Source of the DNA: Escherichia phage EP335
Length of the DNA stretch: 64,000 nucleotides
Strand: one strand, 5' to 3'
Sequence record: MG748548
In this document: positions 5,586 to 51,823 of the stretch, one piece after another
How positions within the stretch are numbered: the stretch's first letter is position 1
Layout: each line of letters opens with the position of its first letter
Translations under genes and position numbers: made by a program
Notes under the pieces: generated by a model
The model's database searches: none
Told to the model about the DNA's origin: nothing
What the model saw: the letters and a program-made list of their open reading frames with translations, nothing else

Positions 5586-5594
5586 GGACACTGA

Positions 5595-8028: not shown

Positions 8029-9131
8029 CAGTAGATACCGTAACTGTTAGTCCTTCGTCGGTTGCAAGCCTTCCGACGGGGGCTACTCAGCAGTTTACAG
8101 CTACAGCAGAAATGAGTGACAGCTCCACAAGCACAACCGGATTTAATTGGTCCGTTGAGGGCGGTGGGGCTATTTCTGTTTCTGGGCTATATACTGCACC
8201 GAGTGCGTCGCAAGAAACCCCAGCAACTATTACGGCTACTAAAGGTGGTAAGGCAGGTACTGCTACAGTTCAGTCTGTTTTTGAACCTGCTACTATTGAA
8301 GCCAAAGCCAACATCACTGGTAAAGTAGGTGGAAGCACTACAGCCTTTACTACAATGTTTACAGCAACTAATTCTTCGGCAGAAGATTATTCTTTTGTTG
8401 TATCTCCAACATCAGCAGGAACTGTCAGTGCCGCAGGAGTTTTAACTTTAAGTAATGATGCAACTGGCACAGTTACTGTTAAAGCAACTCATAAAACTCA
8501 GTCAGGTGTTGAAGCCACTGTAACCTTTACGGGTGTTGTTGCTAAAGCTGCTATTACTGGAAAAACAGTCACAGGTAAAGTTGGTGGTGATGTGATTCCT
8601 TTCACGGACATGTTCACTAGTAACAAACCAGCATCAGAATTCAACTACGTGTTGACTCCGACTGGTGATGTAGGTGAAATTGACACTACTACAGGTGCAC
8701 TGACTCTCTTAGATGACCCTACAGACGAACTTATTAGTGTTAAAGCTACTCATAAAACTCAAACTTCTGTAACAGCAACCACTACAATCACAGCTACTCC
8801 GAAACTTACGGGCCTTGTTGCTTCTACTGTTTCTAATACTGTGGTCGTAGGTGCTACAGATAACCCTCTTGCTACAGACTCTATCACAATCACTGACTCC
8901 GCTCAACCGGGTGTAGTTCGTTTTGATGGTGTACCTCAGGGTTCAGTAGTTGGTGCTCTATCTTATGACACAGAAGGTACTGATGTAGGTTTGATGGAAG
9001 TTGATTTAACAGGTCAGGTGTTGACAATCACTTTATCAGCTCCGATTACCAGTGAAGATACTAAAATCTCAATCAGAACTAACCCAGCCTCCACAATATT
9101 CCGTACTTATGTTGTCAAGTCTGGTGCATAA
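8013..9131 (+). CDS. Ig-like (Big_2) domain extension, probably expressed as capsid-Ig fusion by -1 frameshift; independent start at ATG 8112 not excluded
   Basis: frame open upstream of ATG 8112 and already encodes Big_2-like sequence VTVSPSSVASLPTGATQQFTATA before the ATG; no clear SD before 8112; T/S/V-rich Ig-like repeats. Confidence 0.55.
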   Translation, partial: GSGGVTVDTVTVSPSSVASLPTGATQQFTATAEMSDSSTSTTGFNWSVEGGGAISVSGLYTAPSASQETPATITATKGGKAGTATVQSVFEPATIEAKANITGKVGGSTTAFTTMFTATNSSAEDYSFVVSPTSAGTVSAAGVLTLSNDATGTVTVKATHKTQSGVEATVTFTGVVAKAAITGKTVTGKVGGDVIPFTDMFTSNKPASEFNYVLTPTGDVGEIDTTTGALTLLDDPTDELISVKATHKTQTSVTATTTITATPKLTGLVASTVSNTVVVGATDNPLATDSITITDSAQPGVVRFDGVPQGSVVGALSYDTEGTDVGLMEVDLTGQVLTITLSAPITSEDTKISIRTNPASTIFRTYVVKSGA

Positions 9132-9136
9132 ACCTA

Positions 9137-9165
9137 AGCTGCCTTCGGGCGGCTTTTCTTGTTTT
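9137..9165 (+). terminator. rho-independent terminator (UUCG tetraloop hairpin)
   Basis: agctgcc-ttcg-ggcggct followed by tttcttgtttt. Confidence 0.6.
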
Positions 9166-9185
9166 AAGACCTATACATGACCAAG

Positions 9186-9197
9186 TGTAATGTATAT
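9186..9197 (+). promoter_or_regulatory. promoter-like motif GTGTAATGTATA
   Basis: conserved TAATGTATA-type motif about 35-40 nt upstream of ATG 9230; recurs at 26307, 35797 (+) and 35724, 46340 (-). Confidence 0.35.
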
Positions 9198-9229
9198 TCT
9201 TTGTCTACATACAACTAGGAGGACAATCT

Positions 9230-9976
9230 ATGGCGATGCCAGACGTTCAGTACCCAATTAATACCTACGGATGGCTTAAGAAGGCTGTGTCCCTCTGGGC
9301 TGACCGTGATGACCCTGAATTTGTTAATCAGATTCCGAACTTTATTAACTTTGCAGAAAAGGAAATCTATCGTAATTTACGTATTCCTCCTCTGGAAAAA
9401 GAAGTCTATTTAGATATTAAAGATGGTGTGGCTTTTATCCCACCAGATTACTTAGAAGCTCAGTGGATGATGAGATCTAAAGATGGTTTAATCTTCCGTG
9501 TAACCTCTCTTGAAGAAGTTGATTGGCTTAAGCGTAATAACTCAGTCAACCCCACTAATTGGAATCAAGGAGAAGTTGTCTTTGCTCGTTTGGGTAGTCG
9601 GTTTATCTTCTATCCTGCAATTGAAGCAGATACTCCAGTTTACCCTGATGATGGCAGCCCTGAGATTCCAGCAGAGAATGCGGTCATTCTTAGCTATTAT
9701 GCTGACCCACCAGAGTTCTGGGAAGATTCAGACACAAGCGCTATTCTTACTATAGCCCCAGAGCTTCTACTGTATTTTGCTTTACGTCATGCTTCCTTGT
9801 TTGTTCAGGATGACAATGCAGTTCAGAAGTGGTCTGCTTTAGGTAAAGCCATTCTTGATGAAGTTGTTGAGCAGAGTAAGAAAGCAGAATACTCAGGTTC
9901 ACCTTTAGTTATTCCTAACACGATTAGCCGTCTACATAGCTCTCGTGAAGTATATGGGATTCGTCGTTTTAGATAA
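9230..9976 (+). CDS. virion structural protein (putative head-tail/tail component)
   Basis: ORF track 248 aa; ggagg RBS; position between capsid and tail fibre genes. Confidence 0.45.
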   Translation: MAMPDVQYPINTYGWLKKAVSLWADRDDPEFVNQIPNFINFAEKEIYRNLRIPPLEKEVYLDIKDGVAFIPPDYLEAQWMMRSKDGLIFRVTSLEEVDWLKRNNSVNPTNWNQGEVVFARLGSRFIFYPAIEADTPVYPDDGSPEIPAENAVILSYYADPPEFWEDSDTSAILTIAPELLLYFALRHASLFVQDDNAVQKWSALGKAILDEVVEQSKKAEYSGSPLVIPNTISRLHSSREVYGIRRFR

Positions 9977-9985
9977 GGAGAGAAT

Positions 9986-26302: not shown

Positions 26303-26318
26303 GTCCTGCCTTCTATAA
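26303..26318 (+). promoter_or_regulatory. promoter-like motif CTATAATGTATATAGG
   Basis: TATAAT hexamer inside TAATGTATATA motif about 45 nt upstream of ATG 26361. Confidence 0.35.
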
Positions 26319-26360
26319 TGTATATAGGGGGTAGGACATTTTTATTTATAAGGAGACGTT

Positions 26361-31507: not shown

Positions 31508-31688
31508 AACCTACATCCATATCATCCTCCTGCCAGACTCGTTTGTTAACACGGTGACTAACCTTGTCAGCTTTAGGGATACGACCAGTACGTTGATCAA
31601 ACAGTTGGTGTTTAATCTTCTGATCTTTACGAGTTTCACGGTTAGGTGAAGTTTCATCATAAGTACGGTAGTTGAATTTATTACCCAT
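31494..31688 (-). CDS. small basic protein
   Basis: internal ATG 31688 with aagga RBS; K/R-rich 64 aa. Confidence 0.3.
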   Translation of the reverse strand: MGNKFNYRTYDETSPNRETRKDQKIKHQLFDQRTGRIPKADKVSHRVNKRVWQEDDMDVGYGEG

Positions 31689-32520
31689 TATCAATATCCT
31701 TATTCCAAATTTTATCAAGCCATGACCACTCGAAGAGGTCTTCTGGTGTTTGACCTACGAATAGGAGACGAGCATTCTCAAGCATCTTCTCTTCCCATTC
31801 TGTATCAAACTTCTTATAATATTCCATTCGCACTATATGATAAAGAGTCCACTTATCACTTACACCTTGTAAAAGGTTGATAGCGGCTTTCTTTCCAACC
31901 CCTTGACGACGGAGTTGTAACTTACCTCCCCACATAACTTCCTCACGTTCGCCACAACCGGGAATGTTATCTGTTCCATCACCAATGAGCATTTGATAAA
32001 AGAAGTTTTGCCAAGCAACCTCATCTGATACATAGTGAGGAGGAACCTCTTTCTGCCTTTCTCCACATGCCCACCGATAATGCCAACCGGGAGTTATCAG
32101 TAAATCTTTGTCTCGTGTACAGATGATGGTGTTCTTGTCAGTTCGCTGCCTTTCTGCTAATGCGTCATCAGCCTCTCTTCCGTAAACATCTATATACTCA
32201 TAATTGTTTTTAATGTAATCACCAACGTTCTGCCAGTGGAAAGGTCTTTCTCCCGGAGGTCGGTTGGCTTTGTATCCTTGCTGCTTTGCTACATCAAAAC
32301 GGAAGTTACCGCCTTCACTGAAATAGAAGACTGTCTTTCGACAGCCAGCGCGAGCAATGATTGTATCAAGTTTGTTTTGAAGTCGTTCAATTAGAAATCC
32401 ATAATCTACTGGTGTACGTCCTGTATCTAGGAAAGGATGCTCCTGAGTCAGAGCACCCACTTCGTATCGGAGAACATCAGCATCCACTAAAGCTACTTCA
32501 GGATACTTAACGTCTTCCAT
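31681..32520 (-). CDS. 5'-3' exonuclease / flap endonuclease (FEN-like)
   Basis: motifs VDADVLRY, YKANR, GREADDALA, DKDLLI, LIGDGTDNIPG. Confidence 0.8.
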   Translation of the reverse strand: MEDVKYPEVALVDADVLRYEVGALTQEHPFLDTGRTPVDYGFLIERLQNKLDTIIARAGCRKTVFYFSEGGNFRFDVAKQQGYKANRPPGERPFHWQNVGDYIKNNYEYIDVYGREADDALAERQRTDKNTIICTRDKDLLITPGWHYRWACGERQKEVPPHYVSDEVAWQNFFYQMLIGDGTDNIPGCGEREEVMWGGKLQLRRQGVGKKAAINLLQGVSDKWTLYHIVRMEYYKKFDTEWEEKMLENARLLFVGQTPEDLFEWSWLDKIWNKDIDNG

Positions 32521-35721: not shown

Positions 35722-35736
35722 TAGTATACATTACAC
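35722..35736 (-). promoter_or_regulatory. promoter-like motif GTGTAATGTATAC (minus orientation)
   Basis: reverse complement of 35722-35736; in 415-bp AT-rich intergenic region upstream of minus-strand gene starting 35667. Confidence 0.3.
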
Positions 35737-35981
35737 CTATACCGATAAGGGTGCTATATAGTATAAGCAGTAGTGGTAGTAGATATTGACTACTAGTAAT
35801 GTATATATTGTATAGATGATAATTCTATTGCAGGCTTGTATATTGGGCAATTCTCAGAATCCCTTGCAAGTACCGAAGGGCAGGAGACACCTGCGAGATA
35901 AAAATAGAGAATTAAGGAATCCTTGATTTAGGTTGTAGGGACTCCTAGGGACTTTGATTCTCTATTTAAAAGAAATATTAA

Positions 35982-39149: not shown

Positions 39150-40997
39150 TCAGTGTGTGTGATTCCAGTTTAATCCAATCTGACAATCAGATGCCAGAGG
39201 GCATTCCATCTTGAGATACTCACCAGCTTTCTTAACACAAAGCTCTGTAAGTTCTTTTAGTTTTTGTGCATCATTACGGTGAACAGAGAACTGCCCTTCA
39301 TCGTGCATGTCAATAACCTTCGCACAACGAACACTATCACGCTCAATCCACTTGTTAAGGAAAAGCATGGCATACTTCATAACAATCGCACCAGCACTCT
39401 GTAAGAGTGTATTCAGTGCTTTATGAACCATAACCTTACCTGTTGCGTCACGTCTCATTGTAATACGACGACCATCAACACCCAAGATATAACCTTGAGC
39501 TGCTTTCTCTGTCATACGCTCAATAAGAATTGCAATACAAGGATTCTCTGCCAAGAAACGTGTTCTCATTACTGAACCTTCTTCAGAGCCTCCACCAACA
39601 ATAGAACCAAGCTTAGCATCACCTGCTCCGTAGTTGAACGCATAGATAAACGTCTTAGCGTTGTCACGAGTAGGAAGACCAGCAAGTCTCTGGTTGTGGG
39701 AGTGGATATCACCTTCTAATAGAATGTCACGATACATAACAGCAGAAGCTAAACCACGTTCAGCTAATGCTTTCTTACCAGCGTTACCTTCTGCAATTGC
39801 TTCAGCAAGCATGTCTCTACACTCTTTAATGAGGTAGTGAGCAAGCATACGAAGTTCTAATCCAGAACCATCATAACCTAGGAAGAGTTCTCTACCAGCT
39901 GGTACATAATACTTATACAGCCCTACTGGTTTGTCTTTCTTTCCGGGTTTTCCACGTTCGTAGATAACGTTTGTATTTTTTCGTAAGTAACACCCATCAG
40001 GGATATTGTTGGTAATGATGAAAGGATAGTTATGACTATCATCTGTGGAGTAGTTAGATTGAAATAAACTCCTACACTCGTGACCAAACAGACCGCGAGA
40101 AGGAATATTAACAACAATGCGATGTTTAAAACGAAATGTCGGAGTAGCGCAGCTATTAGCTTCCGCTGAGAGTTTACCATCTGGACGTTCCTTATCAATC
40201 AGTCCATTAATCAAGCCTAGTCTGTGAGCCGCTACAACACGTCTCTTAAGCAGACTTCCCACTTTACCTAGATCACCCTCAAGACCTTCTTCAAGAGTCT
40301 CTTCGAGGTTTGTAGGAGCTGTGGGCCACTTGTTCGAAGTAGCTAATGCTCTCTTAATTTCATCAAAGGTTACAGGTTTCTTCCTGTTAGGGTTTAAACC
40401 TAAACCAAAGACATAAGCCTTCATGTAGTTGACAGTTTTGTGACGAAAGTGCTTATCCAAGAACTTCTTGATATCAGCATCAACCATCTGAGCTGTCTGT
40501 CGCTCTTTCTCATTGCCACGCATCCAAGAGTTGTACCATTCTTGATACGTTCCACACTTACGCATGGCTCGCTTAATCTCAAATGTGTTCCAAGGCTTCT
40601 TAGATGTATTAAATTCTGGAGGAAGAAAACCTTCATCCATCAGTGCTTCTTTAACTCGTGCATCCTTTGATGGGTCAAAGTCAACATACTCAACACAAGT
40701 AAAAGCTCCACCAATATCTTCTCTCTTTAACCCCACTCTGTCGCAATATAATTGAGGCCACTTCTGAAGAGCACCAGTCTTCTTAAAGGGTTTCATGTAA
40801 GTAGAACCATCAACCCTCATCTTAGGTAACAGAGGAATCAGCTCTCTGTCGATGTTAACGATAATCTCTCTGAGAAGGTGAACATACCACCGTGCATTCC
40901 TCCGATTAAAGTTGACACCACTCTTCGCTTGCTTTGAAATTATATCAGCGACAGTCATCTCCGTTAAGAACGGAAGTACATCAGGGTTCTCCATCAC
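39150..40997 (-). CDS. DNA polymerase, family A, polymerase domain only
   Basis: motif A DGSGLELRMLAHY, motif B RDNAKTFIYAFNYGAGDAKLG, motif C VIDMHDEGQF; no 3'-5' exonuclease motifs in N-terminus. Confidence 0.85.
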   Translation of the reverse strand: MMENPDVLPFLTEMTVADIISKQAKSGVNFNRRNARWYVHLLREIIVNIDRELIPLLPKMRVDGSTYMKPFKKTGALQKWPQLYCDRVGLKREDIGGAFTCVEYVDFDPSKDARVKEALMDEGFLPPEFNTSKKPWNTFEIKRAMRKCGTYQEWYNSWMRGNEKERQTAQMVDADIKKFLDKHFRHKTVNYMKAYVFGLGLNPNRKKPVTFDEIKRALATSNKWPTAPTNLEETLEEGLEGDLGKVGSLLKRRVVAAHRLGLINGLIDKERPDGKLSAEANSCATPTFRFKHRIVVNIPSRGLFGHECRSLFQSNYSTDDSHNYPFIITNNIPDGCYLRKNTNVIYERGKPGKKDKPVGLYKYYVPAGRELFLGYDGSGLELRMLAHYLIKECRDMLAEAIAEGNAGKKALAERGLASAVMYRDILLEGDIHSHNQRLAGLPTRDNAKTFIYAFNYGAGDAKLGSIVGGGSEEGSVMRTRFLAENPCIAILIERMTEKAAQGYILGVDGRRITMRRDATGKVMVHKALNTLLQSAGAIVMKYAMLFLNKWIERDSVRCAKVIDMHDEGQFSVHRNDAQKLKELTELCVKKAGEYLKMECPLASDCQIGLNWNHTH

Positions 40998-41009
40998 CCT
41001 CTCCTTTTA

Positions 41010-41387
41010 TTATCGGTATAGTAAATCTGTAAACGCTTGGTTGTCTGCTATTACGTCCAAAGCCTCATCCGTGCTAGGAACTTCAGTTTCTTCCACTTGG
41101 TACGCAACCTCACGTACACGGAAAGCTCTTGCAGGAACCCTAAAGCCAGCATGTCTCTCCATAACATCTTTCTGAACCTGTGCAAGCTTCATACCCCACA
41201 CTTCTTCATAAAGCTCTGGATGTTTATTACTAATAACTACATACTGACGATGTACGGACTTCGACTCTCTGACCTTAGCTAATAACTCATTAAACAAGTC
41301 TAACTCTTCTTCAGAGAGCGCATCTACAACGTCTTCCCACTTCTCTACACAGAAGCGGTGGGCATGTCTGATAGGAAGTGACATCAT
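41010..41387 (-). CDS. hypothetical protein
   Basis: ORF track 125 aa. Confidence 0.45.
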   Translation of the reverse strand: MMSLPIRHAHRFCVEKWEDVVDALSEEELDLFNELLAKVRESKSVHRQYVVISNKHPELYEEVWGMKLAQVQKDVMERHAGFRVPARAFRVREVAYQVEETEVPSTDEALDVIADNQAFTDLLYR

Positions 41388-41642
41388 TTACCCCTTAGGA
41401 AAAGGAAGAAGATTCTCTACTGCAACACGATAAACCTTTTCTACGTTTTTGTTTTTATAGGAGATGAACTTGCCATCAGCACCACGAAGGATTACATTAG
41501 TGCGAGCAGTCTTCGGGTTCTGGGAAATCTGACCAGCAATGATAGATGCATTAAGTGCGTTCTCAGCGTAGTTAGTAAACTTCCACTTAACAAGTTTATT
41601 GGCAATTGAATCGATAATGGTTACAGTTTTTACGATAGACAT
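41388..41642 (-). CDS. hypothetical protein
   Basis: ORF track 84 aa. Confidence 0.45.
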   Translation of the reverse strand: MSIVKTVTIIDSIANKLVKWKFTNYAENALNASIIAGQISQNPKTARTNVILRGADGKFISYKNKNVEKVYRVAVENLLPFPKG

Positions 41643-41711
41643 AATTTCTTACCTAAGAAGTTTAATTTGGTTTATATAAAAGAAAAGGCCACCCAAACGG
41701 GTAGCCTCTGA

Positions 41712-42026
41712 TTAACTAGAGCTTAAAGCTCCTTTGCGACCGCCAGCTGATTTTCCAGCGCGATCTCCACTTTTGCCGCCAGCTGAACGATTTCCGCTGA
41801 CTGTCTCAACACGTAAATTGCTTGACGCATTAGAGCCTCCTGATTTAATGGCTCGTTTGTGTCCGACATCTTTACCTTTGAGTGCAGATTTTCCAACGCG
41901 TTTTTCAACGATGCGACGTGCACGGTGGCGCTGAGCATCTCCGCTCTTACTTCCAATTCCCGTTTCACCTCTTGCGATGGCTGTACGTCTTTCTTGTGCA
42001 TAATCTCTTTTAGCCTTATCAGTCAT
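41712..42026 (-). CDS. small basic low-complexity protein (G/K/R/S-rich)
   Basis: aaggag RBS 7 nt upstream of ATG 42026 supports this frame over overlapping ORF 41723..42001. Confidence 0.5.
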   Translation of the reverse strand: MTDKAKRDYAQERRTAIARGETGIGSKSGDAQRHRARRIVEKRVGKSALKGKDVGHKRAIKSGGSNASSNLRVETVSGNRSAGGKSGDRAGKSAGGRKGALSSS

Positions 42027-42084
42027 TTACAACTCCTTAATATATCAGTGTACACTAAGGAGTATACATTATGAGAGGGTAGCT

Positions 42085-42825
42085 TTAGTTGCCATCCTTC
42101 TCCATAGCTTTAACGATTGCTTTACAGAAACCAGAACGAACAATATCATCCGAGTCACCATCAACAATATCAGCGAACTCATACAGATCGTGCTCGTCAA
42201 TGAACTCGGTAGCCCAAGTAAGACCACTCTCTCGACCTTTCATATCGTGCTGGTTAGTGTCACCCATGCAGAACAGCTGGGATGTTTCACCCAAGCGAGT
42301 CATAATAGAGAATGCTTCATCTTTGGTTGTATTCTGGAACTCATCCACAATAACAATGGCATCATTGAAAGAGCGACCACGGAGATATTCCAGAGGTACG
42401 AACTCAATATTACCGTTACCAAGCTGGCATTCATAGAAACCTTTACCATACCGCTGAGTGATTACATCAACAATAGGCATTAGGTACGGTTCGAACTTAT
42501 CACGAAGCCCACCCGGAAGTAGTCCAAGAGAGTTACCCATGCCAACAGAAGGTCGGCTAATGATAATCTTTTGAATCTTACCGCTCTTCAGTGCATCAAT
42601 GACAGTAGAGGTGATGACGAACGTCTTACCACAGCCCGCAGGAGCGTCTGTGAACACCACTTGTTTAGTCTTGATAGCATTGAGCAGCTCAGATTGAAAC
42701 TGATTCTGAGGGACCACTGGCTTCGCTAAAACAACCTCTTCATATTCACGCTTACCCTTCTTGGTGACTAAGGCTTCACGACGTAAATCTTTACGAGACT
42801 CTCTACGGGACTGTCTACGGCTCAT
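42085..42825 (-). CDS. phoH: PhoH-like ATPase
   Basis: P-loop DAPAGCGKTF, motifs YLRGRSFNDAIVIVDEFQN and GDTNQHD. Confidence 0.8.
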   Translation of the reverse strand: MSRRQSRRESRKDLRREALVTKKGKREYEEVVLAKPVVPQNQFQSELLNAIKTKQVVFTDAPAGCGKTFVITSTVIDALKSGKIQKIIISRPSVGMGNSLGLLPGGLRDKFEPYLMPIVDVITQRYGKGFYECQLGNGNIEFVPLEYLRGRSFNDAIVIVDEFQNTTKDEAFSIMTRLGETSQLFCMGDTNQHDMKGRESGLTWATEFIDEHDLYEFADIVDGDSDDIVRSGFCKAIVKAMEKDGN

Positions 42826-43007
42826 TTGCGCTCTCCTAGCTCTTCGTAATTAAATACAGAGGTTCGACAATCTTTACATGTTGTTGTATAGACCCGAACA
42901 TTAATGAACTTCTTGTTCTTCCCTTTGGTGGGTGAGCCTTTAGCAAGCTCACTAATAACCTTAGAACTCAGGTTTAGGTTTGTGCCCTCGCATTTAGAGC
43001 ACTTCAC
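42822..43007 (-). CDS. small zinc-ribbon protein
   Basis: CSKCEG...CKDC pattern, 61 aa. Confidence 0.4.
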   Translation of the reverse strand: MKCSKCEGTNLNLSSKVISELAKGSPTKGKNKKFINVRVYTTTCKDCRTSVFNYEELGERK

Positions 43008-43170
43008 TCAGGCTCACCAACAGTAACTTCCCATACAACTTGAGAGATGATATTGTTGATCTGTTTGATTTGCTCGTGAGTCAGTTGCATGCCTTTCATT
43101 TTCCGAGAGGCATTACTTCGTGCTCTTCGCTGACGGTAGAAGTTATTCTTCTTAACAGAGTGTAAGCTAC

Positions 43171-43416
43171 TCATTTCACAAGCTCCACTTCTTCAATGCT
43201 GTACCCTTCATAATCCCACTCATCTCCCCAATAACTCTCCTTACCTTCGAGAAGTGATTCAATAACTCGCTCACGGTGTTTATCTGGAATAGGAAGACTT
43301 TCTAAATCCTTGCGTTCAGGGGGTGATAGAAAAACTTTGACAGCATAGGAGTAATCAGAACTCCCTTCCATCTCTCCTGCAAGTTTTGTTAAGACGAAAC
43401 ATTTAGATGCAGTCAT
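43171..43416 (-). CDS. hypothetical protein
   Basis: ORF track 81 aa. Confidence 0.4.
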   Translation of the reverse strand: MTASKCFVLTKLAGEMEGSSDYSYAVKVFLSPPERKDLESLPIPDKHRERVIESLLEGKESYWGDEWDYEGYSIEEVELVK

Positions 43417-43634
43417 TTCACAACCTTAAACTTAAATGTTGTTGGGTGGTAGTAGTGTAACCTGTTTATTGTATGCTTAGTCTCATGATACAGGATACAA
43501 GAGTGGCACATTGAATGGTGCAAACAGGTTACTGGATTACGTTTGAAATTGGCAATAAGCTTCCGCTTGTTACAGAAGCTACATGTTTTGTGTAAGTCCA
43601 TTAACTCTCCAGAGTTTTCCTTAGAGCTGACCAA
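43413..43634 (-). CDS. small Cys/His-rich protein
   Basis: ORF track 73 aa (CSFC...CLHHSMCHSC). Confidence 0.35.
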   Translation of the reverse strand: MVSSKENSGELMDLHKTCSFCNKRKLIANFKRNPVTCLHHSMCHSCILYHETKHTINRLHYYHPTTFKFKVVK

Positions 43635-44257
43635 GAAATTGGGTAGAGTTTAGCCATCTCTTCATCTAATGACTGAGCAAACAGTCGAACTTCATACTGA
43701 GCATGGGATGATAGTCGTTGACGACACAATTCAAACCAGCCATACAAACTACCAGTCCATACCCACTCAGTAATCATCCCCTGAGGAAGAACAAAGCGAG
43801 CTTGCTCTGGTGCAACAAATTCAATTAATTTGTCATAGGCTGCCAGTGAAGCCTCATACGCATTATTGATTAGCATTAATGCTTCGGCTCGTTCTCCGTT
43901 GACAAGCTGTGTCCCTGAACCTGCATGGAGGTCCGAAGGTCTCGCAAAAATCTCTTTAGGGATGAAGACTTCAACTGCTCCATCTTTATACCGCCGGGAC
44001 ATTTCGTTCCACGAGAATCCAACCTGATGTTTTTGTAGTTGACGAGCTATTGCAATTGGAGCTTTACATCGAAAAGATACTTGAGGGTGTCTGAACGGAG
44101 TACAGTGTTTCTCTCTGGCAAGAAAGTTGATTAATCGAGTATCACGATCATTCAAATCACCCTCTCGCACAACACCGAAAGAAACTCTTGCAGCATTAAC
44201 AACTGTTTTATCACTACCCATAGCTTCAATCAATGTTGCCTTCAATTGTTCATTCAT
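43601..44257 (-). CDS. thyX: flavin-dependent thymidylate synthase ThyX-like
   Basis: ThyX-type signature region ARQLQKHQVGFSWNEMSRRY (SxxxxSxRY present; canonical RHR replaced by KHQ) and C-terminal ARFVLPQG...GWFELCRQRL..HAQYEVR. Confidence 0.65.
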   Translation of the reverse strand: MNEQLKATLIEAMGSDKTVVNAARVSFGVVREGDLNDRDTRLINFLAREKHCTPFRHPQVSFRCKAPIAIARQLQKHQVGFSWNEMSRRYKDGAVEVFIPKEIFARPSDLHAGSGTQLVNGERAEALMLINNAYEASLAAYDKLIEFVAPEQARFVLPQGMITEWVWTGSLYGWFELCRQRLSSHAQYEVRLFAQSLDEEMAKLYPISWSALRKTLES

Positions 44258-44732
44258 ACTTCAACTTCTCCTTGTTATAAGCAATCTCTGCTTCCTCTGG
44301 AGTGTGGAAAGTTCCCAAATGTTTAGTCTTTCCGCCAACTCCGATGATAGCTCTGAATTTTGTACCACTCGCCGTCTCTCTGATATAGACACCCATTGGG
44401 AGCTTTCCAGCTTTTCCGGCTCTGTTATATTGTTTCCTGTTATGACAGTTTGTAGATGGGTCAACATCTCTTAGGTTTTTAAGAGAGTCATCCAGTTTAA
44501 TCTGGTTGATATGATCAATCTCAAACTCAGGCATCTTTCCATAAGAGAAAAACCAAGCTAAACGACAAGCTCTGTAAGATTTTCCTTCGTAATAAATATA
44601 CCTGTAACCTAGTGTAGAGATACACCCAGCAATATTCCCAGCCACCCGTCTACCTTTGGTATTCTTCCACCGAAAGATTCCAGTTTCAGGGTCATAAGAC
44701 AGGTCTTCTTTTATCTTGTCAGTTAATATCAA
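44250..44732 (-). CDS. HNH homing endonuclease with AP2-type DNA-binding domain
   Basis: HNH motif EIDHINQIKLDDSLKNLR...NCHN and AP2-like GVYIRETASGTKFRAIIGVGGKTKHLGTFHTPEEAEIAY. Confidence 0.7.
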   Translation of the reverse strand: MILTDKIKEDLSYDPETGIFRWKNTKGRRVAGNIAGCISTLGYRYIYYEGKSYRACRLAWFFSYGKMPEFEIDHINQIKLDDSLKNLRDVDPSTNCHNRKQYNRAGKAGKLPMGVYIRETASGTKFRAIIGVGGKTKHLGTFHTPEEAEIAYNKEKLKYE

Positions 44733-44994
44733 AAGCTGTTACCAAGAAAGATTTCAGGTTTGCTTCAGTCTGCATACCAGATAAGCTATAATGTGCACCG
44801 CTGTTACGGTTAGGTACGATGAAAGCAGGAATACTTCGTACACCGTATTCGATAGCTCGATCACGACCATTGCCTTCGAGGATGTTAACCTCTTCAACTT
44901 CTAGGTTAAGCTCTTCAGCTAATTTGTTGAGGGTAGGGGCCATTGCTTTGCAAGGAGCACACTGATTACTATAAAACTTAATAACTTTATTCAT
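44719..44994 (-). CDS. thioredoxin-like protein
   Basis: CxxC active site in FYSNQCAPCKAMAPTLNKLAEE. Confidence 0.6.
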   Translation of the reverse strand: MNKVIKFYSNQCAPCKAMAPTLNKLAEELNLEVEEVNILEGNGRDRAIEYGVRSIPAFIVPNRNSGAHYSLSGMQTEANLKSFLVTAFDIN

Positions 44995-45167
44995 TCACTC
45001 TTCCCATTTACAAACAGCTCAAGATGTCGCTTGGTAGTGGGGACTACGATATAGTCCTTGTAGCCATGAGACTTAGCAAGCTCTTCTGCTATCTTTTTGG
45101 TAGCACCTAATGCTACTACACATCGGCACACGATGATTGTGTGCGCTTTGTATTCATCTTTGTTCAT
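44991..45167 (-). CDS. unannotated small ORF, 58 aa
   Basis: translated by eye (MNKDEYKAHTIIVCRCVVALGATKK...); stop TGA overlaps ATG of thioredoxin gene (ATGA). Confidence 0.35.
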   Translation of the reverse strand: MNKDEYKAHTIIVCRCVVALGATKKIAEELAKSHGYKDYIVVPTTKRHLELFVNGKSE

Positions 45168-45174
45168 AAAAACC

Positions 45175-45360
45175 TTAAGCAGTGATCAGGTGGAGGATAA
45201 ACGGGATGACTACAGAGATGATAACCCAAGCAACAGATGCGATTTGAATTTCAGCTTTCTTGTCAGGAGTTTCTTCAATAAGTTTCTTGCTACCATAATA
45301 AACACCTCCGCCAATGAGAAGTGCCCAAATACTCCAAATGATTGCTGATAACATATTCAA
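45175..45360 (-). CDS. small membrane protein with two TM segments (holin-like candidate)
   Basis: 61 aa; hydrophobic segments AIIWSIWALLIGGGVYY and VAWVIISVVIPFILHLI. Confidence 0.45.
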   Translation of the reverse strand: MNMLSAIIWSIWALLIGGGVYYGSKKLIEETPDKKAEIQIASVAWVIISVVIPFILHLITA

Positions 45361-45412
45361 TTCCTTATAAATAAGTTCGCCCTACCTCGGATTAGGAGAC
45401 AGGGCGGAGGTT

Positions 45413-46000
45413 TTAGTATGAGACGTCACTAGAGTGTGACATGTTACTTTTAACGAAGTAGCAATACTTGCCTAACCCTTCGTTGATTTCTTGGAGCATG
45501 CTCTGGTCAACTGGATACTCGCTCAAACATCCATCGAACTCATCCATTTTGTCAATCATGCACATTAAAGACATGCACATATCAGAGAGCATACCATCCA
45601 TATCTAGGTCTGCATTTCCTTCAGAGAACCAAGAGTGTGATAGGTAGTTAGAAGCAGTTGCATCCACCTTAATACAGTGGAAACGCATACGTTCAGCTAT
45701 CCGATCACCTGTCTCACGAGCATAATCTTCAAGCTCATCAAACATTCCATGAACACCCTGAAATCCTGCACCAGATACGTTCCAGTGATAATTCTTAGCT
45801 TTGATATGCAAGAGTTCTAAATTAGCTTGAATACCGCATAGAATGTGTTCTAGGCTGTTTCCACTAATCATCCCTTGCATACGCTCTAAACGGGAGATAG
45901 AAGAGTCTGTTTCACGTAATACATCACGGAAAGAAGTCTCTTTTGTTAGAGTTGGTAGGTCGAAAACATTGTGATTAGGCATTAGGATTCTCTCCATCAA
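45413..46000 (-). CDS. dps: Dps/ferritin-like protein
   Basis: Dps signature LHIKAKNYHWNVSGAGFQGVHGMFDELEDYARETGDRIAERM. Confidence 0.7.
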   Translation of the reverse strand: MMERILMPNHNVFDLPTLTKETSFRDVLRETDSSISRLERMQGMISGNSLEHILCGIQANLELLHIKAKNYHWNVSGAGFQGVHGMFDELEDYARETGDRIAERMRFHCIKVDATASNYLSHSWFSEGNADLDMDGMLSDMCMSLMCMIDKMDEFDGCLSEYPVDQSMLQEINEGLGKYCYFVKSNMSHSSDVSY

Positions 46001-46304
46001 GTTCTACTGAGTTCGCAACATTGCGTGTAATGTTATCCATTACCTGTTGGGTGATAACGATGCAGTTCTGTGGGTCAACCGACTTAGAACGTCCCATCTC
46101 AGGGTCATACACTTTAACGCGCTTTGCTGTAGAACCAGTTACCTGTAACACCTTGAGAAGATAACCCTGATTCCCGATAGACCATGCAACAACATCACGA
46201 TTCTTGATGAATCGACCAAGCATATCACGATGATAGAACTGCTGCATAACCTTTGATTTATTAATCTCTTCGGCTGGCGGAGCCACTTTACTCAAATCTA
46301 ACAT
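45975..46304 (-). CDS. hypothetical protein
   Basis: ORF track 109 aa; overlaps Dps start. Confidence 0.35.
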   Translation of the reverse strand: MLDLSKVAPPAEEINKSKVMQQFYHRDMLGRFIKNRDVVAWSIGNQGYLLKVLQVTGSTAKRVKVYDPEMGRSKSVDPQNCIVITQQVMDNITRNVANSVELDGENPNA

Positions 46305-46335
46305 TTCACTCTCTCCTGTTCAATACAATATTCTT

Positions 46336-46350
46336 ATACTGTATATACAT
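46336..46350 (-). promoter_or_regulatory. promoter-like motif AATGTATATACAG (minus orientation)
   Basis: reverse complement of 46336-46350; about 35-45 nt upstream of minus-strand gene start 46304. Confidence 0.3.
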
Positions 46351-46376
46351 TTGAGAGTGATCATATCTACTACCAA

Positions 46377-46583
46377 CTAGTAGAAAACTGCTTTGGATAT
46401 AAAAGAGCCAGTATTAGGGTCCTCATGCCATCGATGCATAGTGACTTTTGAGATAACCTTGCAAGCTTTCAAGTTTTTCTTGGTGAGACGAGCTTCTTCT
46501 CTGGTGTTGAATAACTTGATGGTATCTTTACCCACACGCTCTTCTACTCTCCACACTATTCGTATAGCCCACATCTTTTTCAT
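46377..46583 (-). CDS. small protein, paralog family A (member 3)
   Basis: 68 aa; shares MKK.W.V.I...TRE.AR..KKNLK...Y pattern with two upstream neighbours. Confidence 0.45.
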   Translation of the reverse strand: MKKMWAIRIVWRVEERVGKDTIKLFNTREEARLTKKNLKACKVISKVTMHRWHEDPNTGSFISKAVFY

Positions 46584-46798
46584 TAGTAATGTACCTTTCC
46601 GCTGATATAAATACGGCCTGAGGTATACTCATAGCCCTTGAGGATTTTGACAGAGGAAACACTATTCATCCCACTGAGAGATTTCTTAAGATTACGTGAA
46701 CCCTCTCGTGTTTTCTGATAGGTCATGGTTGTATTACCATTATCCCACTCTATCTTAACTATCCAAATTCTTTTCATAAGACCTGCTCTCTTTACCAT
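46583..46798 (-). CDS. small protein, paralog family A (member 2)
   Basis: 71 aa (internal start MKRIW possible); ATGA overlap with neighbour. Confidence 0.45.
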   Translation of the reverse strand: MVKRAGLMKRIWIVKIEWDNGNTTMTYQKTREGSRNLKKSLSGMNSVSSVKILKGYEYTSGRIYISGKVHY

Positions 46799-46995
46799 TA
46801 GTAGTACACCTTGCTATTGGCGAAAAAAGCACCTTCGCTATTCACAATAGCTTTTCCTAATGTAACCTTGTTAAGTCTAAAAGTAGACTTGTATTGATTT
46901 TTGACCCTACGTGCGTGATCTCGAGTCTTAACAAAATCTACAGCTACCAAGTCTCCAGTCATGTTATCATGTACACGAACAATCCACTTTTTCAT
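46798..46995 (-). CDS. small protein, paralog family A (member 1)
   Basis: 65 aa MKKWIVRV...; ATGA overlap with neighbour. Confidence 0.45.
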   Translation of the reverse strand: MKKWIVRVHDNMTGDLVAVDFVKTRDHARRVKNQYKSTFRLNKVTLGKAIVNSEGAFFANSKVYY

Positions 46996-47529
46996 TTACA
47001 CACCCTTAGAAGCAACAACACCTTCGCTACCATTGTAGCGACCTTTAACTGCATAGGAATGCTCACCAGCATGTGAATGCTCAAACATCACCATCTGACC
47101 GACACGCATACCAGCACGAACCCGTAAGCTGTGGTGCTTGGTTACGTTATGGAACTCAAATGTCAGCTTGCTATTGTTAAACCCAGCGTCTGCCCAACCA
47201 GCGTGCAAGTGGTTCAAGCCACAACGAGCCATTGAAGATCGTAGAACAAACAAGCTGGAGATGTTATCTGGGAGGTTGAACTCTTCCATTGAGTGAGCCA
47301 AGAAGAATTGTCCCGGAGTGATGATAATGCCATCTTCAGGGATTTTTACTTCTTTCCACTTGAGGTTTTCTTTCGCATCAATGTCAACAATCCCATCAGC
47401 CTGTTCTTCAATAAGGATAGTATCACCAACACGGATATCCACACTAGCAGCGTTAACATACTTATGCTCCGCATCCAGAAAACCGTTGTCGATAACGTCG
47501 TGTAATTCCATGCTTCCTAATAAACTCAT
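46996..47529 (-). CDS. dcd: dCTP deaminase / dUTPase-superfamily protein
   Basis: motif SSMARCGLNHLHAGWADAGFNNSKLTFEFHN...GMRVGQMVMF. Confidence 0.7.
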   Translation of the reverse strand: MSLLGSMELHDVIDNGFLDAEHKYVNAASVDIRVGDTILIEEQADGIVDIDAKENLKWKEVKIPEDGIIITPGQFFLAHSMEEFNLPDNISSLFVLRSSMARCGLNHLHAGWADAGFNNSKLTFEFHNVTKHHSLRVRAGMRVGQMVMFEHSHAGEHSYAVKGRYNGSEGVVASKGV

Positions 47530-47543
47530 TCTTATTCCTTATG

Positions 47544-48824
47544 TTAATCTGCGATACTGTCGCTTTCGTCCATCCAGACTGGACTGTTAACCTGTCCTAG
47601 ACGACGAGCTGATGTTTCGTTAATAGAGTTAACCCCTGCTGTGCGAGGGTTTGTGTACCACGGTCGAGCTATGGTGCCCTCTCGAATCACTTGGTTCGTT
47701 TCGACATGCCATCTGTTTGATACCGTGTTGGCTCCGAAGTTACCACCCGCCCCACCACTAACAGGTACAGCTTGAGCTGGTTGGTTTACTCGGTTAGTTC
47801 CTGCCCCAAAGGCTGCTGCAAATTCAGACACACGTGCATCAAATGAAGAACGAACACGCTGAGTAGGTGATATATCATTTCGTGTATCTACTGCACGAGG
47901 CATAGCCCAAGTATCATCTGTTGAGATATCAGGGGTAGGCTCTTGCTCTAGAGGTTGAAGATTAGCTGTCCATTGACTATTCAGTATACGATAGAAATCT
48001 GCACCATAACCACTTCGGATAACATCCTCTCTGACACCAAAGAAGCGACTGATATCCCCACCGATTCGGGCTAGTTTGTCATTGTATGCAGGTATGATTA
48101 TTCCACCCTCTGTCACTAAATCAGAGACACGACTTGTTGTAAGTGGTGAAGTGATCCAACAATAATAATCAGTAATGTGACCATCGTATCCGAAGAATGC
48201 AATCTCTGCATCAGGCCATTTCTTGTGGACATATGCCACTTCACGGTTAGAACAAACAGGGATTGCACCTGTTTCAGTCATTGCATAGAAGCCGTCAGAA
48301 GAGAACCAAAGTGAATCTAGTGCTAAGAATCCACGACACACGCTCGGGAAAGTAGCAGCCAGCGCCCCAAGTGAGGTAGGTTCATTGAACATTAACTGAA
48401 TCTTTGCACCCTGATAATTAATCTCTAGGATATCTACAAAATTCAAAGAAGACCCAGGGGCATATTGATTATTACTTCGTCCAATATCCTGCTCAATGAG
48501 AAGAGATCTTGTTTCAACACCATGAGCCTCTGCCCACTCTTTGAAATCTTCAAGGAACAAGCGAGCCTTAGCTCGCCACATCGACCGATCAATTACAGAC
48601 TGTCTCGGCAATCCACCCTCTGTAGTGATGAGAAAGATATCAATGTCGTGAGGTTCACGCGTCTGAAAGATTGCATCCCTAACAGCACCACCTGCAATGA
48701 TAGGGTACACACCATCAGGGATTAAACGGTTTGCAATCAACTCGTTAATTAACGTAAGACCAGACACAAGCTGCGGACTATCATCAATCCGTCGACGAAT
48801 TAGTGCATTAGGGATATTATACAT
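47544..48824 (-). CDS. Pol-beta superfamily nucleotidyltransferase with CCA-adding-enzyme-like head motif and G/N/A-rich C-terminal region
   Basis: IIAGGAVRDAIFQTREPHDIDIF (GGxVRD ... DxD); C-terminal ~120 aa low complexity. Confidence 0.55.
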   Translation of the reverse strand: MYNIPNALIRRRIDDSPQLVSGLTLINELIANRLIPDGVYPIIAGGAVRDAIFQTREPHDIDIFLITTEGGLPRQSVIDRSMWRAKARLFLEDFKEWAEAHGVETRSLLIEQDIGRSNNQYAPGSSLNFVDILEINYQGAKIQLMFNEPTSLGALAATFPSVCRGFLALDSLWFSSDGFYAMTETGAIPVCSNREVAYVHKKWPDAEIAFFGYDGHITDYYCWITSPLTTSRVSDLVTEGGIIIPAYNDKLARIGGDISRFFGVREDVIRSGYGADFYRILNSQWTANLQPLEQEPTPDISTDDTWAMPRAVDTRNDISPTQRVRSSFDARVSEFAAAFGAGTNRVNQPAQAVPVSGGAGGNFGANTVSNRWHVETNQVIREGTIARPWYTNPRTAGVNSINETSARRLGQVNSPVWMDESDSIAD

Positions 48825-49373
48825 TTACATTTTCCAATATAAAGATGGGGGGTCATTTGGGTCAAAGTTTGCAATATGACAAAGATATTTATAAACCTTA
48901 ACCGTTAAGTTTACGTCCTGTTCACAATAAGTAAACATGTCCTCTGTAAAGGCATCCCATGCTTCTTCCTGTTCACCGTAATCGCCCTTAAGCTCTTCTA
49001 AGAACTCACCCCATTGCTTTAAGCCATGACCTCTTGGGCCATGTCTAGGGTCGCCTTTCGGATACTCAGGACTGTCACCAATACGGTCAGGTTTAAGATA
49101 CCGACTCAGACATAAAGTGTCTAGGACGTTGAATTTGTATTTGATTAATTTCGGATATACTTTCTTCAGAGCTGGAAGGTCGAAGTCAATAATATTATGA
49201 CCTACAACAATATCAGCCTCTGTAAGTTTCTTGATACCCTCTTCAATCTGGTGAGGACGAAATCCCCACCGTTCACCAGTTGCTATATCGAAGATAAAGA
49301 TACACCATACGTTTGTGATATTGTCGTACAGTGCATCACTCTCAATATCAAATGCGTAGACTTTCTTTACCAC
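48825..49373 (-). CDS. stand-alone 3'-5' exonuclease (DnaQ-like DEDDy)
   Basis: Exo I FDIESD, Exo [11 protein letters not shown], Exo III YCEQDV; sits directly after primase-helicase as in T7 gene 4 / gene 5 order. Confidence 0.75.
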
Positions 49374-51157
49374 GGGCTTTTCTCTCCATCTTGAGCAAGA
49401 AGTGATGCTGCATCCTCTCCATTTGTCAGCGAGAATGGATTTTCTTCATCAATTTCATGATCTTCACGCTCAAGCAACCGTCCCGTCTCTCCTACATACT
49501 TCGTATAGCACACCCCTGTTTGTCCATAGTTACGCTCTTTGAGGAGTCGTATAATGGATAGGTTCTTAGCCAGACCATCTGCTTGTTTGTCACGTTCAAA
49601 ACCGATGATACATTGACACCAACGCATAAGAGAACGAGAACCAGTAAACTGTACCTCTCGAACCTGACCACCTTCTTCATGAGGTGCACCACCTGCCGGA
49701 GCATTAAGATGAGATAGCACGAATGCTGTGAAGTTTAATTCTTGACACATACCAGCAAGCTCTGAAGCAATCTTACTGATTTCAGTGTTAATCTCTGAAG
49801 GTGTTAAATGGGATACCAGAGCGGTAATGTTATCAAGGATGATAAACTTACACTGGTTTTCAACAACCCAGAAACGGATACACTGTTTAATGTCGGCCCA
49901 TTCATTCTGACCAAAGTTATCATAGAGGAAGAATTTATCTGCATATCGAAGAGCTTCGTTACGCAATGTATCTTCATCATACTCAACATCAGGTCTGTGG
50001 AAAGGAATAGATGCTGACTTACCTGCAATATTCTTAACGGACATTCCGACCTTCTCTTCCAAGAAGAATCCACCACCATTAAAACCATGCTCAAGACAAA
50101 GCCAAGCAACCAGTTCATGTGCAATCAATGTTTTACCAGAGCCTACACCTCCACCAATTGCTACCATCTCTCCCCAACGAATACCGTAGGTCATCTCATT
50201 AAGAGTCTTCCACGGATATGGGATACCCCACTCTGCTTTCTTCAGAGCATCATCTAAGCAATCAAAAACAGTTACAGCACCAGCTGGGGATTCCCGCTTC
50301 GCTGAATATTTAAGAATGTTAAACAACTCCTGACCACGACCAGAGAGGAGCATATCATTCGCATCTTTAAGCTCTTTCTCAACACCGTTGTACTGGAAAG
50401 AACCTTTAGGAATACGAGCAAACTTCACATGGGGGAACAGAGCACGCCCTTTGGTAAGAGCAATCTCACCAGCATCATCGTTGTCCATACAGAGAACAAC
50501 CTCTTCAAAACCATTCAAGAACTCACGGTTGCGAGATAAAACGGAAGAGATTGACCCTGCACCGAAGGGTAAAGAGACGCACGCTGGTTTAATATTTGTT
50601 GCATTTGTAAAAGCTGTAAGAACATGGAAACCAGACATGCAAGACAAAGGGTCTTCAAAGATGAAGAGCTTCTTATTGTACACATCTCCACGTTTAGCCT
50701 GTGCCATACCAAACAAATCAGCTTCTTTCACACTACCGATGTAATAAAACTTTTTACTATCAAGTAGTTTAACCTCATAACCAACAATGTTTCCATCACG
50801 TTCACGAGGGAAGAAGTAACTGTCTGGTGTCTGACCATCAGTTTGACTGAGACCGATACGACATTCAAAACGCTCTGATACAGCTTTAGGGATTAATCGA
50901 CGAGTGAGTTCTCCTTGAGGTAACTCCAAGCAATCATCCAAGACTTCTCGAAGTTCTTCAGGGGACAGCTCTTTCTTTTCGTTTGGTGTAGGTGTCGTGC
51001 CTTTCTCAAAGACTTCGTAATTACCACACCGGTTACAACTACCCCACTCTTCACCGGATTCCTCATTACGGAAGAGAATCATGTGATTGTGGGTTTTATC
51101 ACGACCATGAGAGATGCACTCTTTACAGCCTGTATCTCCCAAAATGATCTTTGACAT
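49367..51157 (-). CDS. DNA primase-helicase (T7 gp4-like)
   Basis: N-terminal zinc ribbon CKEC...[22 protein letters not shown], Walker [10 protein letters not shown], Walker B FIILDN. Confidence 0.85.
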
Positions 51158-51194: not shown

Positions 51195-51404
51195 TTACTT
51201 ATAAAAACTTCGAATCATGTCCCAGATTTCTTCCTGCTGGACCCTAAAGAAAGCTAAACGTGTCGATGTACGTTCAATAAATTCTTCACTATGCTTTTCT
51301 CTATCTAGCATACTGACAAGCTTTTCATATTTATTGATCTTCCATCGCATTTTTAAATAGTCTGATTCCAGTGTCCTTAACCTCTGACACTCAATCAAAC
51401 CCAT
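51195..51404 (-). CDS. hypothetical protein
   Basis: ORF track 69 aa. Confidence 0.4.
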   Translation of the reverse strand: MGLIECQRLRTLESDYLKMRWKINKYEKLVSMLDREKHSEEFIERTSTRLAFFRVQQEEIWDMIRSFYK

Positions 51405-51823
51405 TAGTTATCCTCTGACAGATAAAGAGACCAGTCACCAGATTCAACCAGCTCATCCTGCTCTTCATCGATGTGATAAATCCAAGCAGTGATAGTTTCA
51501 CCACTATCCATTACAACTTCGATAGGAGTACGCTTATAGAAAGTGTGTGGGTTGTCATTACCGCGATGCCCTTCCAGCATATCATAAGCACCCTCAACAC
51601 CATCCATATCCGTCTTAAATACTTCAACACGAACAGGTTTACCGTTGCTGTTGTGTTCCAGAGAAACACTTGGGAAGTATGAACCACCGTAGCGGTACAA
51701 GTTGTAGTTTTCTTTAGTGAAGCCTTCACCAATTGATTCAGCACCTGCACGAGCATTCACTCGGAAGTTGGCCTGACCAGTGCGAAGAGAACCGTAAGTT
51801 GCTACATAAATTACTTCTGACAT
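51404..51823 (-). CDS. gamma-glutamyl cyclotransferase-like (AIG2/GGCT family) protein
   Basis: N-terminal YVATYGSLRTG motif typical of AIG2/GGCT fold. Confidence 0.5.
   Translation of the reverse strand: MSEVIYVATYGSLRTGQANFRVNARAGAESIGEGFTKENYNLYRYGGSYFPSVSLEHNSNGKPVRVEVFKTDMDGVEGAYDMLEGHRGNDNPHTFYKRTPIEVVMDSGETITAWIYHIDEEQDELVESGDWSLYLSEDN

Follow-up and report, generated by a model that had tools for sequence, protein, structure and literature searches.

Separate genes for the predicted proofreading exonuclease and polymerase halves of a T7-type DNA polymerase in Escherichia phage EP335

The DNA of Escherichia phage EP335 analysed here (sequence record MG748548, a stretch of 64,000 nucleotides that is called the window and whose numbering is used throughout) carries two distant genes that correspond to the two halves of a T7-type family A DNA polymerase. 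A 182-amino acid protein with the complete motifs of a 3'-5' proofreading exonuclease is encoded directly behind the primase-helicase gene, and a 614-amino acid polymerase devoid of exonuclease domain is encoded 7,830 bp downstream. Both proteins probably work together as a two-polypeptide replicase similar to T7 gp5, in which the proofreading exonuclease would be bound non-covalently to the exonuclease-less polymerase. The split polymerase is already known, has been annotated since 2008 and is common to a whole group of phages; the present analysis adds the mapping of the break, a graded series of spacers, a tree in which the exonuclease-less polymerases group together and the insertions that are specific to their clade. 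The main features are the following:

48825..49373, minus strand: putative 3'-5' proofreading exonuclease of the T7 gp5 N-terminal-domain type (DEDDy), 182 amino acids (PF01612, PHROG 38876/403).
39150..40994, minus strand: putative exonuclease-less family A DNA polymerase, T7 gp5-like, 614 amino acids (PF00476, PHROG 17).
40995..48824, minus strand: spacer of 7,830 bp with 20 open reading frames (ORFs), counting those of at least 50 amino acids.
49367..51157, minus strand: putative primase-helicase, T7 gp4-like, 596 amino acids (PHROG 239, E 4e-174; Pfam DnaB_C and Toprim_2).

The sequence of the 182-amino acid protein contains the motifs Exo I (DxE), Exo II (NxxxD) and Exo III (YxxxD), found as FDIESD (residues 8-13), HNIIDFD (59-65) and YCEQD (149-153), as had been stated in a preliminary description made from the sequence alone. 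The protein scored 30.1 bits against Pfam PF01612 (cut-off 23.6), matched PHROG 38876 (E 1.5e-69) and PHROG 403 (E 3.3e-37), both named 'DNA polymerase exonuclease subunit', and aligned with residues 4-182 of T7 gp5. Residues D9, E11, H59, N60, D65, Y149 and D153 were invariant in the counterparts from phiEco32, Crifsvirus A24, Privateervirus 3H10_20, Bruynoghevirus 1KM and a fused Aeromonas phage polymerase (32-86% identity), and invariant or nearly so among 31 stand-alone-sized homologues. With its catalytic DEDDy residues intact, the exonuclease looks functional.

An AlphaFold2 model of the exonuclease (predicted local distance difference test, pLDDT, 90.6) retrieved T7 gp5 in all of its 27 best PDB fold matches, with E-values from 7e-12 to 5e-9 and identities of 24-29%. 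The preliminary description had named an unrelated nuclease of the RNase T/DnaQ type as one of two findings that would overturn its interpretation, and a DnaQ, RNase T or TREX-type enzyme could be suspected because all DEDD nucleases share one fold and weak matches to TREX1 and ExoI-type stand-alone nucleases do appear next (E of at least 2e-5, 10-14% identity). However, the T7 gp5 E-values are at least 4,000-fold better and the identities higher, so that an unrelated nuclease of this kind was rejected and has a negligible probability. Among the 150 best cluster representatives for the exonuclease, drawn from a library of 1.8 billion proteins, 88 were at least 500 amino acids long and matched at their N-terminus, and 35 had at most 260 amino acids. 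By sequence and predicted fold, the 182-amino acid protein is nearer to the polymerase-attached exonuclease domains than to the stand-alone DnaQ, RNase T and TREX nucleases.

The polymerase scored 84.1 bits against PF00476 (cut-off 34.3) over residues 362-612 and matched PHROG 17 over residues 9-614, and its best sequence match was T7 gp5. Motif A (DxxxLExR; D375, E380), motif B (RxxxKxxxYxxxYG; R443, K447, Y451, Y455) and motif C (HDE; H564-D565-E566) were invariant in 55 homologues. The AlphaFold2 model (pLDDT 90.5) also had T7 gp5 as its top 27 Foldseek matches (E down to 5.8e-26), with the Bst, Klenow and Taq polymerases at about 1e-16. From its sequence and predicted structure, the protein is a family A DNA polymerase of the T7 gp5 branch, with a right-hand fold closest to that of gp5. 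An exonuclease domain, which the preliminary description had named as the other finding that would overturn its interpretation, was detected in this protein neither by its PHROG 17 coverage, nor by an exonuclease hidden Markov model (HMM), nor in a multiple alignment of its N-terminus, which agrees with the earlier assignment of polymerase motifs A, B and C without exonuclease to the ORF 39150..40997. This ORF does exist on the minus strand, but the 615 amino acids first attributed to it should be shortened by one, since the start is most likely the ATG at 40994 and not the GTG at 40997; the ATG lies 6-7 nucleotides after AAGGAG, and the resulting length equals that of phiEco32 gp53 (614 amino acids).

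Alignment to T7 gp5 and to a fused relative located the break between the two halves. The exonuclease covers positions 670-825 of the PHROG 17 profile and the polymerase the adjoining positions 836-1233. A fused metagenomic polymerase of 611 amino acids (P0112) is collinear with both halves, residues 4-164 of the exonuclease aligning with its residues 2-148, and residues 12-132 and 243-614 of the polymerase with its residues 164-281 and 302-611, respectively. In the multiple alignment with T7 the break maps near residues 190-210 of gp5, in the linker that separates the last exonuclease helix from the helix starting ...DIEHRAAW (gp5 residue 216), with no residues missing and none extra at the junction. 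The break is thus placed by alignment exactly in the linker between the exonuclease and polymerase domains.

Two other explanations of the break were considered at this point. A split intein or trans-splicing that would rejoin the halves, to which the same negligible probability as to an unrelated nuclease was given, was rejected since no Pfam intein/Hint domain was matched in either half and no residues extend beyond the domain boundary. The split could also have arisen by duplication of a fused gene followed by complementary losses, a rival concerning the origin only, since the present-day function would be the same. In favour of duplication, the tail of the 1KM exonuclease (...TWQELVEWRTVDWLKSE) resembles the N-terminus of the polymerase (MDWRKSLFVEHKVADII), as if the junction segment were present in both, and the conserved junction tryptophan is found in the polymerase N-terminus of A24 and 3H10_20 and, in the window, close to the C-terminal end of the exonuclease. 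Nevertheless, the 1KM overlap spans only about 13 residues and was recognised by eye in one genome, and degenerate remnants of the lost domains were not found with PHROG profiles or the exonuclease HMM, which detected no exonuclease remnant at the polymerase N-terminus. Duplication is therefore regarded as an unlikely origin.

Comparison with related phages revealed that the split is widespread. The order gamma-glutamyl cyclotransferase, primase-helicase, exonuclease, spacer and polymerase recurs in several phage groups, with the following spacers between exonuclease and polymerase:

1KM, Bruynoghevirus: 1,927 bp with seven small ORFs (exonuclease 6049..6558, polymerase 8486..10123).
3H10_20, Privateervirus: 4,548 bp.
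A24, Crifsvirus: 7,720 bp.
Window phage, Kuravirus-like: 7,830 bp.
phiEco32, Kuravirus: 7,991 bp.
Bas89, Kuravirus-like: 8,198 bp.

The helicase stop and the exonuclease start overlap or abut in phiEco32, Bas89, A24, 3H10_20 and 1KM; in the window, the GTG start of the exonuclease overlaps the primase-helicase stop by 7 nucleotides (49367..49373, GTGGTAA), in agreement with the position behind the primase-helicase gene and the distance of about 8 kb between the halves that had been described initially. Identity of the exonuclease and of the polymerase to those of the window falls in step over four phage comparisons (86/88, 53/47, 42/48 and 36/45%). Aeromonas phage 1233 encodes a fused polymerase of 746 amino acids directly after the primase-helicase; a shorter nucleotidyltransferase gene follows this polymerase gene directly.

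This conservation decides on the other possibility raised in the preliminary description, the insertion of an accessory island into a polymerase gene. A recent single insertion that had cut a fused gene in this phage or in its immediate ancestors would fit a spacer rich in auxiliary and mobile genes, among them an HNH gene found only in the window between ThyX and thioredoxin. Yet Bruynoghevirus, Privateervirus, Crifsvirus and Kuravirus share this break point and gene order, their spacers ranging from 1.9 to 8.2 kb and the halves being only 36-53% identical, and all close relatives of the polymerase are exonuclease-less; a recent island was rejected on these grounds and is very improbable. Since the order is kept whether the spacer measures 1.9, 4.5, 7.7 or about 8 kb, the data argue for an old split with gradual gene gain, so that the idea of accessory genes entering between the halves holds as an old and gradual process and fails as a recent event.

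Metagenomic sequences have also been considered. Most of the 80 IMG/VR loci that best matched the exonuclease contain a single fused ORF of about 580-620 amino acids, 11 have exonuclease and polymerase in adjacent separate ORFs (for instance L025, L047, L056, L061 and L063), and on a 97-kb contig (L009) both genes are separated by about 9.6 kb. None of the 120 best database relatives of the polymerase (369-633 amino acids) carries the exonuclease, and a match to at least 80% of the window polymerase was found in about 242 phage records. In a neighbour-joining tree calculated from the last 400 residues of the polymerases, 58 exonuclease-less enzymes were separated, as an exact bipartition, from 72 fused or adjacent-split ones, with bootstrap values of 61/100 for the exact group and 92/100 within one taxon. 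The window polymerase groups with the exonuclease-less clade, whose nearest outgroup is formed by fused polymerases of about 600 amino acids (P0108, P0112 and P0115-P0118). The marine adjacent-split group is far off in the tree and has no thumb insertion, and its splits are therefore interpreted as independent events. The closest fused relative has a comparable gene neighbourhood, arranged as primase-helicase, one gene, fused polymerase, 5'-3' exonuclease, endolysin and convergent genes. From these comparisons it is concluded that one old fission would have taken place in this lineage, with independent fissions elsewhere, and that the spacer would then have grown stepwise.

The exonuclease-less polymerases are further distinguished by insertions, located in the window protein at about residues 133-242 (thumb), 312-370 (before motif A) and 390-418 (after motif A). 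Segment lengths, counted between conserved anchor residues in window numbering, are the following:

P125-L248, thumb: 122 amino acids here and 74-127 in the exonuclease-less clade; 24-32 in 64 fused and 2-36 in 8 adjacent-split polymerases; 31 in T7.
F311-D375, before motif A: 63 here, with a clade median of 59; 11-19 in fused and adjacent-split polymerases; 19 in T7.
Y387-D429, after motif A: 41 here, 13-50 in the clade and 13 in LUZ24-like phages; 13-16 in fused and adjacent-split polymerases; 16 in T7.
P57-F98, equivalent of the thioredoxin-binding loop: 40 here and 38-46 in the clade; 35-48 in the nearest fused polymerases; 63 in T7.

A helical thumb insertion of 50-95 amino acids was present in all 58 exonuclease-less polymerases and in none of the fused relatives examined, and the window thumb lies inside the clade range; judged by these alignments, the thumb insertion is a perfect clade marker within the sample. 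A beta-rich insertion of about 50 amino acids before motif A occurs in most of the 58 and in no fused relative examined. A Pfam scan of the thumb insertion (residues 126-245) and of the insertion before motif A alone, at E of 10 or below, identified no family. As the adjacent-split polymerases do not have the thumb insertion, it is not a requirement for splitting in itself. A T7-type thioredoxin-binding loop, for which a length of about 71-76 amino acids in the gp5 thumb was the criterion, was rejected, and it cannot be claimed from homology because the equivalent segment is short (40 amino acids versus 63 in T7).

The polymerase gene is itself a target of mobile elements in close relatives. 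In Bas89 a 781-nucleotide insert with an endonuclease ORF lies inside motif B (FNY|GAGD), the gene being annotated as a joined coding sequence (locus 3001..5625), and the polymerase genes of KBNP1711 and vB_EcoM_PE006 are likewise interrupted according to their annotation. The window gene is uninterrupted at codon 454/455, where Bas89 carries the endonuclease insert, and this codon is therefore an empty homing site.

The results are best accommodated by the following sequence of events. An ancestral fused T7-type polymerase of about 600 amino acids would have been broken long ago in the linker between its domains. The exonuclease half would have remained immediately after the primase-helicase, its start codon overlapping the stop codon of that gene, and the polymerase half would have come to lie 7.8 kb downstream as genes of nucleotide metabolism (Dcd, ThyX, thioredoxin, Dps, PhoH and the nucleotidyltransferase), small ORFs and mobile HNH endonucleases accumulated in between. 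The 182-amino acid protein, produced along with the primase-helicase, would then serve as a proofreading subunit with an intact catalytic site; it would bind the polymerase non-covalently and edit its errors, both proteins together constituting a gp5-like enzyme. Physical assembly of both proteins and proofreading between them are inferred from homology, co-inheritance and the intact catalytic residues, and a two-subunit polymerase appears as the likelier functional interpretation.

Several observations weigh against this scheme. The bootstrap for a single origin is moderate, the exonuclease-less set of the tree was taken from a similarity-ranked list, and the partner exonuclease gene was checked for a minority of the metagenomic exonuclease-less polymerases. 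A literature search for biochemistry of split family A phage polymerases returned genome descriptions only. Moreover, the stretch that separates the exonuclease gene from the polymerase gene contains a phage promoter motif and two terminator-like hairpins, so that each half may have its own transcript and its own level of transcription.

These signals, together with the fact that in every lineage examined the exonuclease gene is tied to the primase-helicase and not to the polymerase gene, would also suit an exonuclease that acts independently of the polymerase, on its own or possibly bound to the primase-helicase, for instance in recombination, repair, the breakdown of host DNA or the processing of primers, leaving the polymerase without a proofreader of its own. 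This is considered unlikely, because the closest relatives of the exonuclease by sequence and fold are the polymerase-attached gp5 domains, because each of the five sequenced genomes examined pairs it with an exonuclease-less polymerase, the halves diverging in step, and because these genomes appear to encode another exonuclease for 5'-3' processing. A bolder variant of the two-subunit enzyme is that the exonuclease-less clade represents a rebuilt replicase, more similar in organization to Pol III than to gp5, whose insertions would dock the free exonuclease or thioredoxin and whose exonuclease would be delivered through the helicase. Such a delivery is suggested by the translational coupling of the exonuclease to the primase-helicase; as a whole, this variant is speculative and rather improbable.

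Turning to the spacer, the preliminary description had estimated about 15 genes between the halves; the count of minus-strand ORFs given above is higher. The accessory genes it named were all recovered by Pfam and PHROG searches, on which the following names rest, and the remaining genes are small ORFs:

47544..48824, minus strand: putative nucleotidyltransferase, 426 amino acids, directly after the exonuclease (PHROG 12715, E 6e-161).
46996..47529, minus strand: Dcd.
45413..46000, minus strand: Dps-like protein.
44719..44994, minus strand: thioredoxin with CAPC motif (PHROG 22).
44250..44732, minus strand: HNH endonuclease, between ThyX and thioredoxin.
43601..44257, minus strand: ThyX.
42085..42825, minus strand: PhoH.

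The nucleotidyltransferase had no Pfam match and no PDB sequence match. Dcd, thioredoxin and Dps form a shared spacer core in the larger genomes and are also present in A24 and 3H10_20. ThyX and thioredoxin are adjacent in Bas89 and phiEco32, where the HNH gene at 44250..44732 is not found, and in the Bas89 spacer HNH genes occupy other positions than in the window. Mobile endonucleases at differing positions partly explain the differences in spacer length, and since these genes and the insert in the polymerase gene differ between close relatives, the region is still changing. A candidate thioredoxin partner is available, as the phage encodes its own CAPC thioredoxin; for Privateer, coupling of the phage thioredoxin with the polymerase, as in T7, has been proposed in relation to processivity (PMC7881722).

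Expression signals have been searched for in the window. The motif tAATGTATAtA is reported for phiEco32 middle and late promoters in PMC4281155. The promoter motif of gp36 (phage sigma factor), TAATGTATA, had 5 exact matches versus 0.58 expected, at 9188..9196 (plus strand), 26316..26324 (plus), 35725..35733 (minus), 35797..35805 (plus) and 42063..42071 (minus). All five are in gaps between ORFs of at least 100 amino acids, with a divergent pair at 35725-35805, and they probably mark middle and late promoters. Matches with one mismatch were not enriched overall across the window. The signals between the two genes are the following:

42063..42071, minus strand: gp36-dependent promoter motif TAATGTATA, intergenic, between PhoH and the ORF 41712..42026.
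46344..46352, minus strand: AAATGTATA, gp36 motif with one mismatch, upstream of the homologue of phiEco32 gene 68.
41684..41709, minus strand: terminator-like hairpin of 11 pairs with a T-rich tail, in an intergenic gap.
45378..45406, minus strand: second terminator-like hairpin with a T-rich tail, in an intergenic gap.

The AAATGTATA site is a tentative candidate for the equivalent of P68, a characterised middle promoter of phiEco32 (PMC12276001). Neither the count of terminator-like sites nor that of a sigma-70 promoter scan in the window exceeded the expectation from shuffled sequence, and both are weak evidence for transcript boundaries. The gp36 motifs and hairpins between both genes suggest that middle promoters located downstream of the exonuclease-helicase unit may drive transcription of the polymerase. 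Polymerase, thioredoxin, Dps-like protein and PhoH were detected by mass spectrometry in SU10 virion preparations and classed as 'middle gene products', according to PMC4281155.

Megablast of the region 39150-49373 matched 120 phage records, the best relative being Escherichia phage KarlSchell_Bas89 (94.2% identity, 85% covered), followed by KBNP1711 (91.9%) and by phiEco32 and many Kuravirus-like phages (about 82%). On the basis of these relatives the source phage is identified as phiEco32-like (Kuravirus-like), a prolate-headed E. coli podophage of the Gordonclarkvirinae type. The primase-helicase, exonuclease, spacer and polymerase genes are all on the minus strand inside one long co-directional gene block, and a tRNA scan of the window found none. 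A further gene of interest is located elsewhere:

31681..32520, minus strand: separately encoded exonuclease, 279 amino acids (PHROG 107).

It is likely the counterpart of the separately encoded 5'-3' exonuclease subunit described in related phages (PMC9965538). The C-terminus of the primase-helicase is acidic, with final residues ...DGEKSPW (49367..49420, minus strand), and this acidic tail with a terminal aromatic residue resembles the C-terminal tail of T7 gp4. In T7, the gp4 tail binds gp5. A gamma-glutamyl cyclotransferase gene is located just upstream of the primase-helicase in Bas89, phiEco32, A24, 3H10_20 and 1KM, the window ORF 51404..51823 (minus strand) having the equivalent position, and amidoligase, glutamine amidotransferase or ATP-grasp genes are found further upstream in several of these genomes. 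The recurrence of this neighbourhood across groups suggests that these upstream genes and the split polymerase constitute an old shared module.

The separation of exonuclease and polymerase is a documented trait of phiEco32-like, Privateer-like and LUZ24-like phages, and its confirmation here changes little for that reason. The clean break in the linker, the graded spacers and the clade-specific thumb insertion nevertheless offer a convenient natural system for the study of domain fission and operon growth in viral replication modules, and a possible source of naturally exonuclease-free T7-type polymerases with an add-back proofreader.

The phiEco32 record (GenBank EU330206, 2008) describes gp53 as a DNA polymerase-like protein without 5'-3' and 3'-5' exonuclease domains and gp74 as a type I DNA polymerase with a 3'-5' exonuclease domain, and the Bas89 annotation and PHROGs use the name 'DNA polymerase exonuclease subunit'. 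Polymerase and 3'-exonuclease were reported as separate genes in all LUZ24-group phages in 2012, with a similar report for phiEco32 (PMC3517423), and in 2023 the separation was described as common to all Kuravirus-like phages and relatives, including Salmonella phage 7-11, Proteus phage Privateer, Vibrio phage Vp_R1 and Aeromonas phage BUCT695 (PMC9965538). The genes, their order, the break point and the spacer content of the window are like those of phiEco32 (gp74/gp53) and of the Kuravirus-like phages Bas89, KBNP1711, SU10 and YF01. Its exonuclease and polymerase are 86% and 88% identical to those of phiEco32, and its polymerase is 99.3% identical to the spliced Bas89 protein; unlike Bas89, it lacks the 781-nucleotide endonuclease insert and its spacer HNH genes are placed differently.

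In the LUZ24 group (Bruynoghevirus), 'DNA polymerase part I' and 'part II' show the same arrangement, with the exonuclease right after the primase-helicase and the exonuclease-less polymerase downstream, and this polymerase belongs to the same clade as that of the window and shares the thumb insertion and the insertion before motif A. However, the 1.9-kb spacer of 1KM consists of small ORFs without Dcd, thioredoxin or Dps, and the Bruynoghevirus polymerase has 545 amino acids, lacks the insertion after motif A and is related to the window at 36-45% identity.

T7 gp5 is the best sequence and fold match for both window halves, with the same motifs, Y451 of the window being the tyrosine at the position of T7 Y526, and in both phages these functions are encoded behind a primase-helicase of the gp4 type whose C-terminal tail is acidic. 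In T7 they reside in one chain of 704 amino acids, gp5, whereas the window uses two genes; gp5 uses host thioredoxin and a long loop (63 amino acids), whereas the window has a segment of 40 amino acids and a phage-encoded thioredoxin. In the E. coli Pol III core, the alpha polymerase and the DEDD proofreader epsilon/DnaQ are also separate polypeptides, but Pol III belongs to family C, the arrangement does not derive from common ancestry, and the window exonuclease is of the family A type and not DnaQ. Split polymerase genes have been reported in OM43 phages, with the break inside the polymerase domain. In the adjacent-split family A polymerases of marine contigs, some of which may be introns or assembly frameshifts, the halves lie in neighbouring ORFs with gaps of 0-0.8 kb.

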